A stretch of 35,439 bases of DNA from a virus: UHGV virus genome UHGV-0327679. One strand, 5' to 3'. The notes beneath the pieces are model-generated. The model did not search any database and was not told where the DNA came from. It saw only the letters and a program-made list of their open reading frames with translations. Positions within the stretch are counted from its first letter, which is position 1. Each line of letters begins with the position of its first letter. The position numbers and the translations under genes were made by a program. Below are positions 1-35,439 of the stretch, in pieces.

Positions 1-245
1 TAGATGGGGAAACAGATGATTCAGATGCTTTTATTAAAGCTTTAAACTCTGGAAGGTCGGTTATAACAATTCCGGAAGGAATATGCATCATCAAGAAGAA
101 TATTAACATTCCTGAGGGGTGTTCACTGGTTGGATCTGGCATTGATTATTGGGATACATATAGACCCCTTCCGGAATTGTTATAACCGACCTTCCAGAGT
201 TTAAAGCTTTAATAAAAGCATCTGAATCATCTGTTTCCCCATCTA
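1..245. repeat. Perfect 79-bp inverted repeat (1-79 vs 167-245) around an 87-bp spacer, at the window edge inside the tailspike gene
   Basis: Reverse complement of 1-79 matches 167-245 base for base; innermost pair (80/166) does not match. Confidence 0.85.
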
Positions 246-696
246 TTTTTGCTCCCCACCCTCTAACATCTCCACAATCTCTCCATCGTGCCATCTGCAA
301 CTCAGGATATTTTTTAGCGCCATCTGGATCTTCTAATTGCTGCCGTAGCTGATCGGGGTCATACTTCAGCACATTGGGAAAATAAAACTGCTGCGCACCA
401 TACGCATCATAAACAGCCATAGAATGGCCTTGCACGGTAACGAATTTGGCAATCTGTCCGTTATATACCGGATATCCGGCAGCGTTAATGATGATTGGTT
501 GCGAAACAGGAACGTGAGAGCCGTCTTCGTTCTCTACATAAACCTGAATCTGGTTTTCTGGATTTACCGGGTCAGTGTCAATTTTACCGATATAAATTTT
601 GCCATTGGCATTTGCTTTAAACGAGCGAGCTAAAGTAAATAACTGACTTGGTTGTGAAACAACTACGTTGTATAATTGTTCTGGCATAATAAACAT
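103..696 (-). pseudogene. Tailspike, N-terminal head-binding domain only (P22 gp9-like); receptor-binding domain absent
   Basis: Translation [106 protein letters not shown] matches the conserved P22-type head-binding domain; frame stops at 103-105 about 30 aa into the beta-helix. Confidence 0.7.
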
Positions 697-709
697 TCCG
701 GAGAAAATA

Positions 710-1210
710 ATGAGTAAGAGACGTCACGAGGTAGTAACTCGGGAGCGCCTTATGGAGGTTCTCGATTACAATAAAGAAACAGGAATTTTCACTTGGAAAA
801 AGAAATTAAGCGCCAGAGGTGCTGTTGGGAAAGTTGCTGGCACAATTTCTTATGGATATAACGCAATTAATATTGATGGCGTAAGATATTTTGCACATAG
901 ACTTGCCTGGCTGTATGTATATGGCGAATGGCCCAAACAAGAGATTGACCACATTGATAGAAACAGAAGAAATAACGCAATCTCAAACCTTAGGGATGTC
1001 AGCAGAGTCGTAAATGCATTAAATGTCGGACCTCGAAATAGCAATGCTGGAATCAAGGGGGTAACTTTCTGTCAAGCCAGAAATCAATGGCAAGCTCAGA
1101 TAAATGTCTCAGGTAAAAACATAACCCTTGGGAGATTCAACACCATTGATGAAGCGGCTATAGCTTATAAGGCAGCAAACATGGTTGCTGACCATCTGTT
1201 GAGTAGGTAA
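710..1210 (+). CDS. HNH homing endonuclease with C-terminal AP2-type DNA-binding domain
   Basis: HNH motif [23 protein letters not shown]2-like [47 protein letters not shown] 6 nt upstream of ATG 710; AT-rich; divergent from tailspike start. Confidence 0.75.
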
Positions 1211-1274
1211 TGTCTGTCATTTAATTTGCTCCAGATACAAGGAATCGCCGCAGCATGGCTACGGTGAATTTTGG

Positions 1275-1301
1275 GCATAAAAAAACCCAGCCGAAGCTGG
1301 G
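1275..1301 (-). terminator. Rho-independent terminator downstream of ant
   Basis: Stem CCCAGC/GCTGGG with CGAA loop (1286-1301), followed on the minus strand by a run of 7 T (plus-strand A run 1279-1285). Confidence 0.6.
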
Positions 1302-3605: not shown

Positions 3606-4088
3606 ATGAGTTACGCTGTGCTAGTTGCCGCAACTCTATTTATGGGGATAGGGTTGCAGATTGCGTGGTTCTTTTTTTCTAGTTTTATTAAACGCAAAAG
3701 AATTGAATCAAGGATATCTGAGATTTCTATTGCCATAGGGAAAAATGCTGAAAATCCAGAGAATGAGACCTGCGCACTTAATTACCTTAAAGAAAAGTTT
3801 TCCCCTGAAAAATTTGAAAATAGAATTACTGATGCTCTTGGATTGGTAATATCAGTAATTCATATGCCACTAAGTTTGCTGATAACAGTGTGGTACTTCG
3901 CCATGATCGCCGGAAGAATATTTGGTTTCATGAATATAGAGCCTGTAGTTCTTTGGGTTCCAATGATACTGCAACTGTTGTTAAGCGTTGCTATCTTTAT
4001 TTTTTCTGTTTTTATAAAAATTGTCTTTGGAAGATACCCCGGAGAAGCTAAGGGATTTAATAAAGAATTCATAAAAACTATAAAATAA
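3606..4088 (+). CDS. Putative superinfection-exclusion inner-membrane protein (SieA-like, about 160 aa, 3 predicted TM helices)
   Basis: Hydrophobic segments [59 protein letters not shown]; position between mnt and gene 16 equals the P22 sieA locus; start codon uncertain (ATG 3606). Confidence 0.45.
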
Positions 4089-4110
4089 ATGCCGTCCTTG
4101 GCTTACAGTG

Positions 4111-5952
4111 CTACTGCCGTGTCGCTTCGTTAGCTAAGAGCGGGCGCACGGCAGTAGCAGCCTGATTTAGCGCTCTTTCATAAGCTGGCGTTCCAGCTTT
4201 AGTGTTTGCCAGACGTAAGAGCGCATTCCTTGCTGCTTTGGACTCATACAAACGCATCATTGCACCAAAACCAGCCTCAATCCCCATTGATACTCCAAGA
4301 GTCGCAGTTGCGCCAATCGTCCTTATCCTGTTGGCTTGTGATTGCCCCGTCTGAGTTACTACATTTGCGGTGTCTGACCTTGCTGTTTGCTGTAGAACTT
4401 CATGAAGAGCATCGAGCTCTTTCATGTGCTTTCCAGAAAAAATAGTGTTGTAAATTTCACCGCCTGACTGAGATTTAAGCTTATTAACTTCAGTGATGAA
4501 CTTGGCTGGAGAGTCACCGGCCTTTTCCGCTATTTTGCTGACGTAAGCTGCACGCATAGCATCTTTCCCTTTATCATCCAATGCGCTCCAGATTCGTTTC
4601 ACGTCAGATGGTTTTCTGCTTAATACAACGGTATTTATAAGTTCAGGACTGGCTTCACTGCTTGCCTTGTTGAGCTTGTTGGCAATGTTTTTATTAAGCA
4701 CCTTATTATAAACGTTTGCATAATCGGAATTTGCTTTAAGGTATTTTGCTGCGTCTGATGCACCGAGGTTTTTAGCAACTGCGTTACGAAGGTCTTTTGA
4801 CATTGCATTCTCTACCATATTGGTAGCTGCTTTTGCCTGGTTGGGGAAGACCATAGCATCTCCCTGAACATTAGATCTAAATGCTGTTCTGTGCTGACGC
4901 AAGAGATCAAACGTAACATCCAAATCAGTTGCAGGGTTTGCTAATTCTTCGCGTAGGTTACGCAAGGATGTAAGCAGGCTTTGATTGGCAGACGTCCCAA
5001 GCCGTTCCTGTCTTGCGATCGCTGTATTCAGAGCATTCATAGTGTTTGTGGTATCAACTGCGGCATTCCCCATTTTATTGGTGACGTCATTGATAACAGC
5101 GCCAGCGGCATCCTTCCGTCCCCTTAACGTGGTGGTCAGAGATTTCACCACATCATCCGGGTTGTACTCACCAAAACGGTCAAAATAATTACTTACCAAC
5201 TTACTACGCGTTGCATATTGCTCCGCTCGCTTTGAGCCTGTCCCGAGCAAAGCCCCCTCGGCATCCTGAGTAAGGCCGCGAGTGAAAGCATTTTTCGGCG
5301 GGATAACATCAGATGTCATTGGTGTCACGCCAATCGATTCTGATGTGGCAATTTTCTTCGCCACTTCTGGCGCAATATCACCTTTTATAGCCGTTATTCC
5401 ACGCCCTATTCCCTTTGCTGCTGCGGAAAGAACCCCCTGAGCGGCAAGGTTAACTCCGGCATTTTTAGCTGCATTTTGTGCGAAATCGCCTTTCTGATTT
5501 GCGGCCTCTGCCAGTGATCCAATAGCCATGCTTCCTGCCGTTCCAACTCCTGGAACTAAATACCCACCAATTGTTTCACCGGCTTGTGCGTATGGGTCTG
5601 TCGGTCTGTCTACTGGACGATAAACATCATCCAAAACCTTGGGTCCACCAAGCCCATGACTGATTGCATTAATCAGACTTGCGCCGCCCTGCAATACGTC
5701 AAATGGTATGTTTACCAGACCACGACCAGCCTGCTCTGCAATTTGCCCTGCACTTTGACCACCTGTGAGCCAATCGCCAGCTTGTTGCATCAATGATGGT
5801 TCTTCACGTGCTGGTTCATTATTGGCCTGATTAACTGTTTGTTGCTGAACAGCCTGACCAGCAAAATACTCATCAATGGCGGTGCCAATATCTTCCGTGC
5901 TCGTACCATCAGGGAAGGTAAATGTCTTACCGTTTGCAGTTACTTTCATCAT
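4111..5952 (-). CDS. Ejection (DNA-transfer) protein, P22 gp16-like
   Basis: 613 aa, Gly/Ala-rich; position and size match P22 gene 16. Confidence 0.75.
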
Positions 5953-8588: not shown

Positions 8589-9538
8589 TGCTCCGCGATT
8601 ATCTTGATGGTTGTGGCAGTAAACGCCGCACCATTCGACTGAATGGTTAACGTGCTGCCATTTGTGGCAAGAAAGCCGTCTTTATCCACACTGAAGAACG
8701 TAGCTAACAGGATGTTATCGGTCGTTGTCGCCGAGTTGCGACTGCTTACCAGTGTGTCAGGAACAGAGCCGGAAAAGGTTAGCTGCATTGACCTGTTTGC
8801 GGTTCCGCTGGGCCACGTCCCGACAATCGACAGCTTGAAGAACAGGGTTTTGTTCTCGTTGAAAACAACCATCTTGTTGTTATCAGTATCGAAGAATGGT
8901 GCCAACGTCCCGGATGACGGCGTGAGCGTTTTCAGCAGGCTAACAAGGTTGGTCGGCGCTGTTGGAATGGTTACCGATACTCCTGAGTAAACAACCTCTG
9001 ATTTCTTGCGCGTGGTGGCATACTCAAGCGCAGATATTCTTGTTGAGTGATCACCAACTGTGCTTTGTAGCGTCGAAATACTTCCCTCTGCCGCTGTGAG
9101 CCTGGTATCAAGTGCGTTGATATCGGTTGTATTCTGAGTTATTCGCGCATCATGGTTTGCTAACTCAGATTCATTGGCAGCAATTCGCGTCTCGTGATCA
9201 GCCAGCTCTGTTTCGGCAGCCGTAATCCTTGTTTCATGATCTGCAAGAGTGCTTTCCGCTGCTGCGATTCTATGTTCATGATTGACGAGAGTTGCTTCAG
9301 CAGCAGCAATTCTGGATTCATGGTCTGCAAGGGTGACATCCTGCTCATCATTCTTCACCTGTGCATCATAAGCCCCCTTCCCTGCTTCGTTGGCCTTGTT
9401 AGCCACGTTACCAACATCAGCACCCTGTGCGATAACGTACAGCAGATATGACTGCGAGAAGATATTGCGTGGAAGGACTGATGTGTCGAGTCGTGTAGCC
9501 TGAATGATTACCGGCTCATTGAGATTCGAATCAGCCAT
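8585..9538 (-). CDS. Tail needle (P22 gp26-like) with C-terminal knob extension
   Basis: N-terminus [39 protein letters not shown] matches gp26; heptad repeats [11 protein letters not shown]; 317 aa versus 233 in P22, suggesting an Sf6/HK620-type knob. Confidence 0.8.
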
Positions 9539-10957
9539 TACTCGATCCTTATCTGGCAGCCTGACAGAGTGACAGGTGACTTAGTGATAACACGCAATTT
9601 GAAGCCGACATTTTTCCTGATGCGCCCAACTCGCTTCCACAAAACGCGTTTGTCGTAAACGAACGGTTCATTCTGCTCAATCATCTGCTCACGCCCGTAA
9701 TTGATACCGTCAGTGGTTGCAGAGAGAAAAAGGCGGTCAGCATACTGCGCAACGCCAGTTGACGATTCAACCTCAAGGTCGAACACTCTGGCGTTATCCG
9801 CTTTGAACAGTGGAGTAAACAGCAGGTGTTCCTGTTGCTTGTCGTACTGGCTGCTGATATCGAACTGCAGTTTCCCGGTAACAGATTCCAGCTTATCGCC
9901 GCACGTTATCTGATTGCCTTCGTAAATGAAGTCGATAGCGCGGTACACATCGTCATACAAGCCAGTTTTCAACACACACCATTGCGTACCATTGGCGCTT
10001 GAAGATGCGTCGTACACGAGAACATGGCGCGCAAGATGGATAATCAGCAACTCATGCGCATCAAATCGCAGAGACTCCATCACGCCATCAGCCAGTTCAT
10101 CAGCAGTGTAGGAGCGTAGTATTTTCTCAATGCTCGCGCTGGCGATTGGTGATACCTGACCAGAGCCGATGATATACACAGACGGCGCACCTGTTGCCGG
10201 ATTGCTGATGAACGCATACGAATCAGCGAACTGCGTTTTGCAGTAGGTTCCAGCGATACCTTTCTGCACCATTAACGATGGCTGGGCGACATACAAAGCA
10301 GCACCAACGGTGGTTGCACCCGTCAGGGAGAAATATTCAATCGTCGATGAACCAAAGCAGACGATAAAGTCTCGCCATGTACCTATGCCGATGATGCCGT
10401 CAGGCTGCGATTCTGCACGATATTGTGCGCTGTAGCGGTCAGGGTGCGATTCGTCTTCAAGGTCAGTGATAAACCATGAATCAGTACCGTCTTTTGACCA
10501 CGCATAACGCCCACGTAAGCGCGTAATGTCGCGAACTGAACCTAACTCATACTGCGTAAAACCGCTGTCTGTAGGCCAGTTTGATACGGTTTTAACCGTG
10601 CCATCATAGCGATACTCGACCAGTTGACCATTAACGCCTACAGCCTGTAGATGTTCGACCATGCGCCATTGATACGCGACCACTTCCGGCGACGTCACCG
10701 ACTTCACTTTCGCCTTTGTACAGCTTGCCACCACACACGCGATAAACGGCACTCTGCGCCATGTTGTACTCGACGCCGCGCGATACGCCGTTCACATCAG
10801 AACGTTTGGCAATTCCCGGGAATGAGCGAAGATATCCGCTGCTGTTCAGGATTTCTTTGGGTGTAGCCAGCATATTCACTGGCAGATAGTCGATATAGTC
10901 GGCATTTCGGAAGTCTTTGCCGACGCCTTTCATGAGCGGAAGTTGCTGAATCGGCAT
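9538..10957 (-). pseudogene. Tail accessory protein (P22 gp10-like) interrupted by a frameshift
   Basis: Two overlapping ORFs (10631..10957, 108 aa, and 9538..10752, 404 aa) in different frames together reach the P22 gp10 length (about 470 aa); shift lies near 10650-10665. Confidence 0.65.
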
Positions 10958-18254: not shown

Positions 18255-18581
18255 TGTTGGCTCCGTTTATCCGTTAAAAGGGATATCAGTTAAGTTATCC
18301 CGTGTAGGGTATAAGCCATTGTCGAGACCACTCATTGAATGGTCTCTGCAATAACCGATGTCTTTCCATCAGTCCGCCACCACAAAGAATCTTTTTTGCC
18401 ATAAGGCAGGAGGTTCATCTTTCAGTGGCTGCCAGTGTTATTTCCCCACTTACTGGCTTGGGTTGTTTCGTGGTACTGCCGTTAACTGGTGGCCCAGAAT
18501 AAATTCCGGTTTCATTATCAAGCCCACCCGTAAATGGGCTTTGTAATGAAGAGTTGTTATGAAAATTGCTCTAAACAAGCA

Positions 18582-19070
18582 TTAATAGCCATCAGAAGTA
18601 ATCGCTACAGATTTCAATCCCTCAATGTCATCCTTGGACAGGGCGAACCATTCACCGTGCTTTCTCTTTGCGGCAAATTTGCGATGAAGCATGTTTTCAG
18701 TTTCTCTTCCACCAGGGATCAGGCACTCAAGCTTCAAGCAGTCTGGTCCAGAGTTGCCAAGCGATTTGATGCGTTGTGGAATGTTGGATGAATACCCAAT
18801 TTTGGTTAGCCCAGTTTTCTTCGATGACAAAACGTATACCTGAGGAGGTTCTTTTCTCTGGTCTTCCATTACACGTCTCATTGTTGCCATAAGTCCGCCG
18901 TGCATCAGCATTTCAACAAAGAACGCTGACCGAACACCTGACGACTTAAGCATGCCAGAAAATTCACTTGCCAATTCCATTAACTCTGCGATGTTTTCAG
19001 GAACTTTTTGGCAGTTATCTTCCTTGTATAAGGAAATCATTCTTTGAAGCTTTTCTTCTAATTGGTTCAT
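18582..19070 (-). CDS. T5orf172/GIY-YIG-like domain protein (moron)
   Basis: C-terminal pattern VYVLSSKKTGLTKIGYSSNIPQRIKSL ... ENMLHRKFAAKRKHGEWFAL fits the T5orf172 (MUG113) family; AT-rich; lies after the lysis-cassette terminator; start ambiguous (ATG 19070 or GTG 19106). Confidence 0.6.
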   Translation of the reverse strand: MNQLEEKLQRMISLYKEDNCQKVPENIAELMELASEFSGMLKSSGVRSAFFVEMLMHGGLMATMRRVMEDQRKEPPQVYVLSSKKTGLTKIGYSSNIPQRIKSLGNSGPDCLKLECLIPGGRETENMLHRKFAAKRKHGEWFALSKDDIEGLKSVAITSDGY

Positions 19071-19220
19071 AGCGTCTTTACCTTTTAGAAAGTGAGCCTG
19101 TCTCACAGAAAAGCCGCCCCGAGATGGTCGCCACCATATACGGCAGTTCTCAGGCTCAACTTTCTGAAAGGCTCGGGTGATGTAATATGCGCGTGAGATG
19201 CGCTGTGAAATTCAGATGTA

Positions 19221-19328: not shown

Positions 19329-19487
19329 TTATCCTGTCGATTCCAATTCGGAGACGGTAATAATTGAGTTCAGCATCTGCTGTAAGTCTTGGGCTTTCTC
19401 CATTGCCCATGCCGCTGGCTCCGGTCGTTGACTTTGCACAGGTGGCGGCGACTTGCAGGCGCTTACGACCAGCAGAAACAGCCACAT
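19329..19487 (-). CDS. Rz1: o-spanin Rz1 (embedded lipoprotein); start probably affected by the Rz rearrangement
   Basis: Lipobox VSAC followed by the Pro-rich KSPPPVQSQRPEPAAW and LNSIITVSE, resembling lambda Rz1; +1 frame within Rz. Confidence 0.5.
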   Translation of the reverse strand: MWLFLLVVSACKSPPPVQSQRPEPAAWAMEKAQDLQQMLNSIITVSELESTG

Positions 19488-19657
19488 CCACAATCGCTGA
19501 CATGCAGAAGCGTCAACGTGATGTAGCAGAACTTGACGCCAGATACACAAAGGAGCTTGCTGATGCTAACGCGACTATCGAAAGTCTCCGTGCTGATGTT
19601 CCAAGTTCTGCTACATCACGTTGACGCTTCTGCATGTCAGCGATTGTGGATGTGGCT
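19480..19657. repeat. Perfect 56-bp inverted repeat (19480-19535 vs 19602-19657) around a 66-bp inverted segment inside Rz
   Basis: Reverse complement of the left arm equals the right arm exactly; spacer is 66 bp (22 codons). Confidence 0.85.
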
Positions 19658-19769
19658 TTATCGCGCTGCTCTTTGTAGGCGATGGCGTTATCACGGTAAT
19701 GATTGACCGCCCACGACAGACAGACGACGATGCAGATAATCAGAGCAGATATAATCGCGGTTACTCTGC

Positions 19770-26241: not shown

Positions 26242-27185
26242 GCAATCCCCCTGTCTGCAAACTTCCCTTCCCGTACTCCCGTTAACGAATCTTCCCTCAA
26301 CAGGTAATCAAAATCAGCCGTCCAGCCCGTGTCGTTGTCTCCGAAGTAAAACGGCTTGGCCTGATGCACAAACGCCCTGACATACGCTCTGAAACCGTCC
26401 ACGTTTGGCGTTTTCAGTTGCGGGATGATTTTCTTCAGGCGGCGTTTGCGTTTCTCGTTGACTGCAACAGCATGTGGAAGTCTGTCACCGACTTCGGTGT
26501 TGTAGGCGTTCAGGAAGGATTCGTAGTCGATTCGTTCTGCCTTGCGACGTTCAGGTTTAACCTGCCCATCGCCGCCCCCATTGGGGGGTAGGGGGGTATT
26601 ATTTATATTCTTGTTAATACCTTCTTGTTCATGATGTGCGGTTGTTTGTGCGGCTTCATGTGCGCTTTCATGTGCGGAATGTGCGCTGAAAGCTGCGCCA
26701 TTACTGGCTTCGTCATGTGCGGCATCATGTGCGGTTGTTTGTGCGGCATCATGTGCGGGTAAATTGTCCATTTTTTGAGCATATTCATGGTAATTTGTGA
26801 TGGTGATCACACGACCTTTTTGCTTCTCTCCATCAATGGAGATCATCCCTTCTTTCACAAAAACCTGAAGCATCCGCTCAACCTGATCACGGCTTGCTGG
26901 CTTGCCATGTCTGTCGCATAACTGAAGACCTAAATCAGCTGCTGTCACAACCAGTTGACCGGGTTGCAGATGCCATTCATGACCTTTGAAATTCGCTTTG
27001 TATGGCTTTCTGGCGGCATTCAGGAGAAGGTTTTCCCACAGGGTGCGAAGATAAACATCTTTCGCCCATGACTGTTTCAGAATGCTCCGGTACAACGGAA
27101 TGTAACCAGTTTTCTGGTTCTCCATCCTGTTGCTCCTGCGCTCGTGTGCGGCGCTGAAATCGTAGATTTTTGCTGTATTGCTCAT
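26238..27185 (-). CDS. O: Replication initiator O-like protein
   Basis: N-terminus [10 protein letters not shown] resembles lambda O (MTNTAKILNF); His/Ala repeat linker encoded by the iterons. Confidence 0.8.
26629..26759. repeat. Probable origin iterons: about 8 tandem copies of a roughly 12-bp unit (tcATGTGCGGc) inside the O gene
   Basis: Repeated CATGTGCGG read directly; adjacent G-rich then AT-rich stretch 26575-26625; same arrangement as ori-lambda within O. Confidence 0.6.
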
Positions 27186-34802: not shown

Positions 34803-35439
34803 TCACGATTACCAAAGAGTTCACCAAAGAGCAGTTGATTGAGCAGGCTAAGAAGAATATTGAGGTTCTTCGCGTTGCGGTGGAAAGAGTCCCAGGCGCT
34901 TATGATGCGGCGGTTATTCACCTCAAGCTGGCTGAAATTACGCTGGCATCGCTGGAAGCAGAGCCAGTGGCAAAGATTATAGCTCACTACCCATTAGGAA
35001 TTGACGTAGGCAAACAAAAGTTCGTACAGGCCATTGGAGAGCTTCCTGATTTTGGCGGATATCTATTCGCTGTGCCGCCAGCGCCGATAGCGTTGGAGGC
35101 TATTGAAAATGCAATTGAATACATTCGCAGTATCGCTTTTCACATAGATGAAGACGATTACCACGGCAAACATATTGCGTATTTCATGCGACAAGCATTG
35201 GCCTGGCTGGAAGGGCGTTCATGCAGCGACGACAGACTGGGTAAAGCCGAGAATCAACCAGTACGCGGCAATGAGTGGACTGGCAATCCTGATATTGATA
35301 ACGCCATCATCATGCTCGACCGCATAGATACGCTGGAAAATTGTGATGATGACCGTATTGAGGGTGTTAAGGCTGTTTTGCGCAGACTGGCTGTCAACTA
35401 TCCGGTAACTCCGGATGGTTGGATAAGCTGTAGTGAGCG
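34799..35439 (+). CDS. Hypothetical protein, partial (open to window end, over 213 aa)
   Basis: ATGA overlap with the upstream stop; no stop codon before 35439. Confidence 0.45.
   Translation, partial: MITITKEFTKEQLIEQAKKNIEVLRVAVERVPGAYDAAVIHLKLAEITLASLEAEPVAKIIAHYPLGIDVGKQKFVQAIGELPDFGGYLFAVPPAPIALEAIENAIEYIRSIAFHIDEDDYHGKHIAYFMRQALAWLEGRSCSDDRLGKAENQPVRGNEWTGNPDIDNAIIMLDRIDTLENCDDDRIEGVKAVLRRLAVNYPVTPDGWISCSE

Follow-up and report, generated by a model that had tools for sequence, protein, structure and literature searches.

The tailspikes of P22-like phages (P22 gp9, Sf6, HK620 and CUS-3) have in common a PF09008 head-binding domain and a position beside the ant/arc/mnt immunity region, and they carry exchangeable receptor-binding modules. 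Joins of a sequence to its own nearby reverse complement are known both as artefacts and as mutations. Among the chimeras of MDA, more than 85% are inverted joins of nearby sequence and more than 70% of the junctions have 2-21 nt of complementarity (Lasken & Stockwell 2007, PMC1855051), and chimeras with same-locus inverted repeats have been described from library preparation, in sonication as well as enzymatic fragmentation libraries (Chen et al. 2024, PMC10908179). Template-switch mutations are short-range replication events described by a four-point model; they are inherited, occur in related genomes, are usually much shorter than the lesions reported here and are thought to need annealing (Loytynoja & Goldman 2017, PMC5453318).

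The stretch of DNA analysed here (35,439 nt, referred to as the window) is a P22-like E. coli prophage nearly identical to the prophage located beside tRNA-Arg/yfdC in the closed genomes of FDAARGOS_1256 and Combat2C1. Its genes follow the order tailspike, HNH endonuclease, ant/arc/mnt, injection proteins, needle, gp10/gp4, coat, scaffold, portal, terminase and lysis cassette, after which come the nin region, the replication genes, the immunity region, the recombination genes and the ea genes. In what follows, positions with a T prefix (e.g. T5961) are coordinates of the reference (L003), and L001 designates a locus from a closed genome. Two other observations were made along the prophage. The HNH endonuclease gene (PF13392, with a weak AP2 match), which lies at 710-1210 on the opposite strand between the tailspike and the antirepressor, is common to phage Kapi1 and some prophages and is missing in others, e.g. 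DP051, and it may be a mobile insertion. Within the replication protein gene (L003 32026-32913), window positions 26630-26757 hold 12-nt-spaced, CATGTGCGG-like repeats in 5 overlapping copies, which may be origin iterons as in lambda O.

The terminal inverted repeat and the truncated tailspike gene

At its left end, the window opens on an inverted repeat that lies within the tailspike gene and is made of the following parts.

1..79, plus strand: left arm, an inverted second copy of tailspike codons ~148-174, redundant and non-native; its reverse complement is L001 4001-4079
80..166, plus strand: loop, the tailspike's own next 87 nt (codons 175-203, ICIIKK...DTYRP), in single copy and flipped; its reverse complement is L001 3914-4000
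166..167, no strand: junction, the complement of T5961 joined to T6048, with a strand flip and an 87-nt offset
167..245, minus strand: right arm, native tailspike sequence at its normal position; window 167-1300 equals L001 4001-5134 at 100%
167..687, minus strand: native 5' part of the tailspike, codons 1-173 plus 2 nt, with the head-binding domain in residues 1-113 and, after it, the beginning of a pectate-lyase-like beta-helix
103..166, minus strand: tail of the chimeric ORF, 20 unrelated residues with the stop at 103-105, produced by reading the flipped segment backwards

The preliminary description of this DNA had claimed a 79-bp perfect inverted repeat with 87 bp between its arms and its first base at coordinate 1, and the inverted-repeat search confirmed this geometry in full: the arms at 1-79 and 167-245 are 79 nt each, 100% complementary and separated by an 87-nt spacer. 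No second inverted repeat of this kind was found in the first 3 kb of the window. The arm length is exactly 79 nt, as the pair 80/166 is an A/C mismatch and neither of the two reference matches extends one base further. About 2e-39 perfect 79-nt inverted pairs are expected in 35,439 nt, and the longest perfect arm in shuffled sequence measured 13-17 nt (20 shuffles). When positions 1-245 were folded as single-stranded DNA, a value of -98.6 kcal/mol was obtained, compared with -21.9 +/- 3.6 kcal/mol in shuffles (z = -21). The 79-nt inverted repeat is thus far beyond chance. Over the whole window, the only canonical 31-mers that occur twice are those of two inverted repeats, the terminal one and another located in the Rz gene.

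No microhomology (0 nt) and no filler base are found at the 166|167 junction. In the closed genome, the sequence whose reverse complement forms the loop (L001 3914-4000) directly adjoins the arm sequence. Judged by these matches, 166|167 is the sole non-native adjacency of the terminal structure, which holds no foreign sequence.

The consequences for the reading frames are as the preliminary description had stated. On the minus strand, the ORF at 103..696 (103..687 from the annotated start) encodes the P22-type head-binding domain, runs through the right arm to ...SVITIPEG and continues into 20 unrelated residues before the stop at 103. On the plus strand, a 55-residue reading starting at base 3 (3-167) corresponds to residues 149-203 of the uninterrupted tailspike in the closed genomes. 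Accordingly, the claim that the 87 bp between the arms are readable as beta-helix on the opposite strand only was borne out by translation, and these 87 bp turn out to be the gene's own codons 175-203 in the wrong orientation.

The head-binding domain matches PF09008 (Head_binding) with E = 2.4e-65, over residues 1-113 of the window ORF and the full length of the profile; the match of the same ORF to PF12708 is weak. In the closed genomes, the intact gene has 2475 nt and encodes 824 aa, annotated as 'phage tailspike protein' (WP_021549864.1), and its receptor-binding part gives weak, sub-threshold matches to PF12219 (endosialidase) and PF13884 (its chaperone). The tailspike present in the window is limited to codons 1-203, of which the last 29 are flipped; the complete beta-helix receptor-binding domain is absent, the remainder of the gene lying past the contig end. 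An alignment to the HK620, Sf6 and CUS-3 tailspike genes had been proposed beforehand and succeeded for one part of the gene: the N-terminal head-binding part aligns at 87-93% DNA identity over ~290-390 nt (from ~250 or 349 to 639), and the receptor-binding part is a different module.

The tailspike region in related genomes and contigs

Window positions 167-1300 are matched at 100% in both closed E. coli genomes, Combat2C1 and FDAARGOS_1256. L001 contains the reverse complement of window 1-166 a single time, at 3914-4079 exactly, and this match is colinear with the match of 167-1300 at 4001-5134, the overlap between the two being the 79-nt arm. The reference tailspike is therefore uninterrupted, since both matches lie colinear in L001 and overlap by 79 nt. 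A closed genome with a continuous tailspike gene and no inverted duplication had been named in advance as the observation that would speak against a real rearrangement, and Combat2C1 and FDAARGOS_1256 are two such genomes.

The same arrangement was met in every other source where the site could be read. In 20 of 20 complete E. coli genomes with the tailspike segment, a query made of window 1-330 was split, with 1-166 and 167-330 on opposite strands, and no place covered 80% or more of it. The 48-nt junction sequence had no exact match in three contig collections (viral, species-representative genome and metagenome), and exact look-up returned no record for the chimeric tailspike ORF, with either of its possible starts, or for the broken Rz ORF. 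Contigs of the same genotype as the window were found in ENA (ERZ28622663, a metagenome scaffold), NCBI (GCA_032330935.2, an isolate) and Logan (SRR18212177, SRR26133269 and SRR26133267); they carry the window's substitutions and show 0 mismatches with the window over up to 17.8 kb. The fold-back at 166|167 is present in none of the four same-genotype contigs that cover the site, and all contigs of this genotype are colinear with the closed genome in the tailspike region. In IMG/VR, a native 60-mer query retrieved 19 contigs, none with the fold-back, including 2 that carry this tailspike colinear with the closed genome. The junction was thus left unreproduced by the closed genomes (0/20), the same-genotype contigs (0/4), the IMG/VR contigs (0/2) and the three collections, as expected of an artefact.

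Four of the same-genotype contigs also end within the tailspike, at T5808, T5923, T5948 and T6164, none with a fold-back. The native sequence of the window ends at T5961 (nt 608 of the gene), and the other ends are spread from ~150 bases to its left to ~200 bases to its right. The segment T4486-5990 (1505 nt) is the receptor-binding module and extends past the window on the left. It shares 98.9% identity with a pseudogene annotated as 'tail fiber domain-containing protein', which belongs to another type of prophage and occurs in E. coli ECONIH2 and in no fewer than 8 further genomes; the identity is exact at T5856-5990. The window stops ~30 bases inside a 1.5-kb module that, in the intact relative, differs from the receptor-binding parts of the described P22-like tailspikes and is shared with this unrelated tail-fibre gene. 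From its sequence, the module looks like a recent exchange between unrelated tail proteins. Two matching places for the segment were counted, by match only, in 4 of the 20 genomes that have the whole segment, which would be consistent with a second copy of the module. The 98.9% identity of a module in another prophage is the likely cause of the shared break point, and it is probably the reason why assemblies break at the tailspike.

The right end of the window (35380-35439) lies 26-44 nt inside a DUF551 block, which is repeated in ~2500 of 5426 complete E. coli genomes at up to 9 places per genome; no fold-back is found there, and this end looks like an ordinary repeat-induced contig end. Both window ends resemble de Bruijn-graph contig ends because each of them lies shallow in a repeat. 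The tailspike, for its part, appears truncated because the contig stops there. Consequently, the proposal that a real foldback inversion had deleted the receptor-binding domain is unsupported: the domain is missing as the contig ends, and other assemblies stop ~150-200 bases away without any fold-back. The preliminary description had left two alternatives, a real inversion or, at a contig end, a chimera produced in assembly or amplification. The uninterrupted gene in relatives and the unique junction support the second one, and the terminal repeat is very probably no real feature of the phage.

Two further private lesions and the origin of the fold-back

Compared with FDAARGOS_1256, the window has 4 missense substitutions, 1 natural module swap and 3 further differences, namely the terminal fold-back, a second fold-back in Rz and a +1 insertion in gp10. 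The differences lying outside the tailspike that are discussed below are the following.

19475..19662, no strand: fold-back in the Rz/Rz1 spanin gene; native sequence ends at T25328 and is followed by 121 nt of T25325-25445 in reverse complement, an extra C, and native sequence again from T25390
10648, gene on the minus strand: +1 T insertion in gp10, outside a homopolymer, giving a frameshift with a stop at codon 109
18483-19220 (ORF 18582-19106), minus strand: GIY-YIG/T5orf172 nuclease module, which replaces a KilA-N gene between DUF2560 and the lysis cassette

The last of these, a 738-nt stretch, was considered as a further artefact and rejected, as it is a natural mosaic module present in 80 complete genomes at ~99%.

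The Rz lesion has exact arms of 56 nt at 19480-19535 and 19602-19657. Its layout is like that of the terminal repeat, with a flipped piece followed by a re-entry further downstream (65 nt, compared with 87 nt at the terminus), but native sequence is present on both sides of it. The true continuation of Rz (22 residues) can be read on the opposite strand only, as is the case for the broken tailspike. At the three strand-flip junctions, i.e. 166|167 and the two of Rz, microhomology amounts to 0, 1 and 0 nt respectively, the last one having the filler base. Where this Rz is carried, the lesion was seen in none of 3836 E. coli genomes and in none of 227 phage records, and the same-genotype contigs L004-L006 lack it as well. 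The gp10 gene, which encodes the packaged-DNA stabilisation protein, occupies 9538-10957 on the minus strand, and the T at 10648 is absent from the closed genomes and from every related contig that covers the site, with a single gap at that position in the alignments. The private differences of the window are thus the terminal fold-back, the Rz fold-back and the gp10 insertion, all three of which disrupt late genes, and no private substitution (0) was found over the 21 kb covered by same-genotype contigs. The Rz lesion and the gp10 insertion show that the window contig carries consensus errors in general.

In all likelihood, the terminal inverted repeat is a non-biological fold-back artefact at the end of a short-read-type contig. 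The contig runs leftwards in its native order to T5961, and in the window the last 87 native bases together with 79 overlap bases appear as reverse complement. One false adjacency, at 166|167, then yields automatically a perfect 79-nt inverted repeat beginning at base 1. A fold-back of this kind is expected to consist of native sequence from the same locus only, joined from one strand to the opposite strand over a short distance, and the reverse complement of 1-166 is indeed identical to the reference, with an offset of 87 nt. The source is most likely a strand-switched (fold-back) chimeric molecule or read of the kind formed in strand-displacing amplification or library preparation, and such a chimeric read could lengthen a contig end where the correct path is ambiguous or thinly covered. 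An error at or after assembly would be the alternative source, and the two would look alike in the sequence alone.

The repeat is read as not belonging to the phage because its junction is unique, the gene is continuous in relatives, the structure starts at base 1 and the break point has an independent cause, and also because the window has further private, implausible lesions without ordinary mutations, and no microhomology that would serve a replicative switch. The likeness to amplification and library fold-back chimeras (PMC1855051, PMC10908179) extends to the nearby opposite-strand join, the inverted duplication with a spacer, the occurrence in one data set only and the poorly supported contig end. 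The window differs from them in that short complementarity at the junction, which is typical of MDA chimeras without being obligatory, amounts to 0 nt at 166|167, and in that the Rz lesion needs two switches per molecule. This lesion is a point against an artefact, since its two coordinated junctions, 121 nt apart, have been assembled through. Random short chimeric reads would rarely give such a product; accounting for the Rz lesion takes a molecule or read that switched strands twice and spans at least ~180 nt, or else a jackpot product of amplification, two contigs joined together, or a real mutation.

As a version of the artefact, the flip could have been made entirely in silico, with no chimeric molecule, by a mis-oriented end piece (in graph traversal, contig merging or scaffolding) or in later processing; this is a possible but tentative variant, towards which some clues in the sequence lean. 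It fits the native end at T5961, which lies exactly 30 nt inside the exact repeat ending at T5990, where a k=31 unitig would stop, and the right window end, which also lies only a short way into a repeat. The two inverted repeats of the window, in which 31-mers are used twice, could not come out of a compacted k=31 graph. The zero microhomology, the one-base filler and the lone one-base insertion outside a homopolymer are in line with a computational origin, and the Rz lesion could represent a contig flipped at its end and then fused to the left-hand contig across a 4 nt overlap. Against this stand the contigs of the same phage, which stop elsewhere: the Logan contig, presumably assembled at k=31, at T5948 (13 nt further in) and the ENA scaffold at T5923 (38 nt further in). 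The agreement between T5961 and k=31 may thus be a coincidence, and it is kept as a weak hint only. The arm length of 79 nt is also a k value in use by some assemblers. We know of no assembler reported to yield exactly this fold-back pattern, and a literature search for assembler behaviour giving such a pattern found nothing relevant.

Real mutation, other readings and significance

The rival of the artefact reading is a real and recent mutation. It proposes that, in a decaying prophage, the opposite strand was copied over 120-170 nt, by a replication template switch or in fold-back repair, before the copying returned downstream, which would leave perfect inverted duplications in both the tailspike and Rz, the contig breaking at the former since the arms are longer than the assembler's k. 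The Rz lesion is the outcome predicted for template-switch mutations (PMC5453318), i.e. a stretch replaced by the adjacent reverse complement so that a perfect hairpin-forming repeat results, and it fits the four-point scheme, with the switch at T25328, copying of the opposite strand running from T25445 to T25325, and the return at T25390; its two junctions agree with each other and were assembled through. Rz thus shows an inverted copy in place of the original, flanked on either side by native sequence, and the terminal repeat, which has no left flank in the window, shows the same return geometry with an offset of 87 nt compared with 65 nt. Moreover, if the inverted repeat were genuine and exceeded k, the contig would also begin exactly at the outer edge of the arm. 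The gp10 frameshift would suit a prophage that gathers inactivating mutations.

The remaining observations point the other way, and a real mutation is considered improbable. Template-switch mutations are found in related genomes, whereas the window lesions are private to one contig: they were absent from all relatives examined, that is from 20 of 20 closed genomes, from the same-genotype contigs covering each site and, for Rz, from the large genome and phage record sets given above. At 121 and at least 166 nt they are long, and no junction has a microhomology that could prime a switch. Three rare disruptive events set against no private substitution over 21 kb is the opposite of the usual spectrum. 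In mutation-accumulation studies of E. coli, indels and complex events are much rarer than substitutions. Nor would any of the three lesions protect the host, so that selection offers no explanation, and the terminal flip sits where other assemblies break for an unrelated reason. That both inverted duplications are real is slightly more doubtful still. Under that reading the tailspike and Rz of one prophage would very recently have undergone two long, microhomology-free events (at least 166 nt and 121 nt), together with the gp10 frameshift, ahead of any point substitution. If they were nevertheless real, they would imply an unusual mutational process, e.g. aberrant repair in abortive induction, that creates perfect hairpins de novo and inactivates late genes, and the window would provide a rare bacterial example of long template-switch events creating intragenic hairpins.

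Invertase switches of host-range genes are known in Mu, P1 and p15B. A programmed inversion of the tailspike segment by a Gin/Cin/Min-type site-specific invertase, with the arms as crossover sites, is suggested by the location in a host-range gene and can be set aside as refuted, its likelihood being negligible: relatives have a single arm copy and no inverted repeat, the left arm (the second copy) being found in this window only, no invertase and no recombinase besides the integrase is annotated in the near-identical closed prophage, the flipped orientation leads to a stop after 20 residues and not to an alternative C-terminus, and the arms are 79 nt long and lie within coding sequence, unlike 26-34-bp crossover sites. 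A hairpin telomere of a linear prophage (N15 type) was rejected on account of the 87-nt non-palindromic spacer and of the integration of this P22-like prophage at tRNA-Arg, with no protelomerase annotated. A natural regulatory hairpin or terminator was likewise rejected, the structure being inside a coding region and absent from relatives.

Taken together, these results call for caution with contigs of this kind: where a contig opens, exactly at base 1, on a perfect inverted repeat made of nothing but the gene's own next bases, flipped, the repeat is to be treated as an end artefact, and it should not be taken for a rearranged host-range gene. From the window it can also be seen why contigs of P22-like prophages often end in the tailspike: its receptor-binding module is nearly identical to part of a tail-fibre gene in an unrelated prophage, and the module boundary is where short-read assemblies break.
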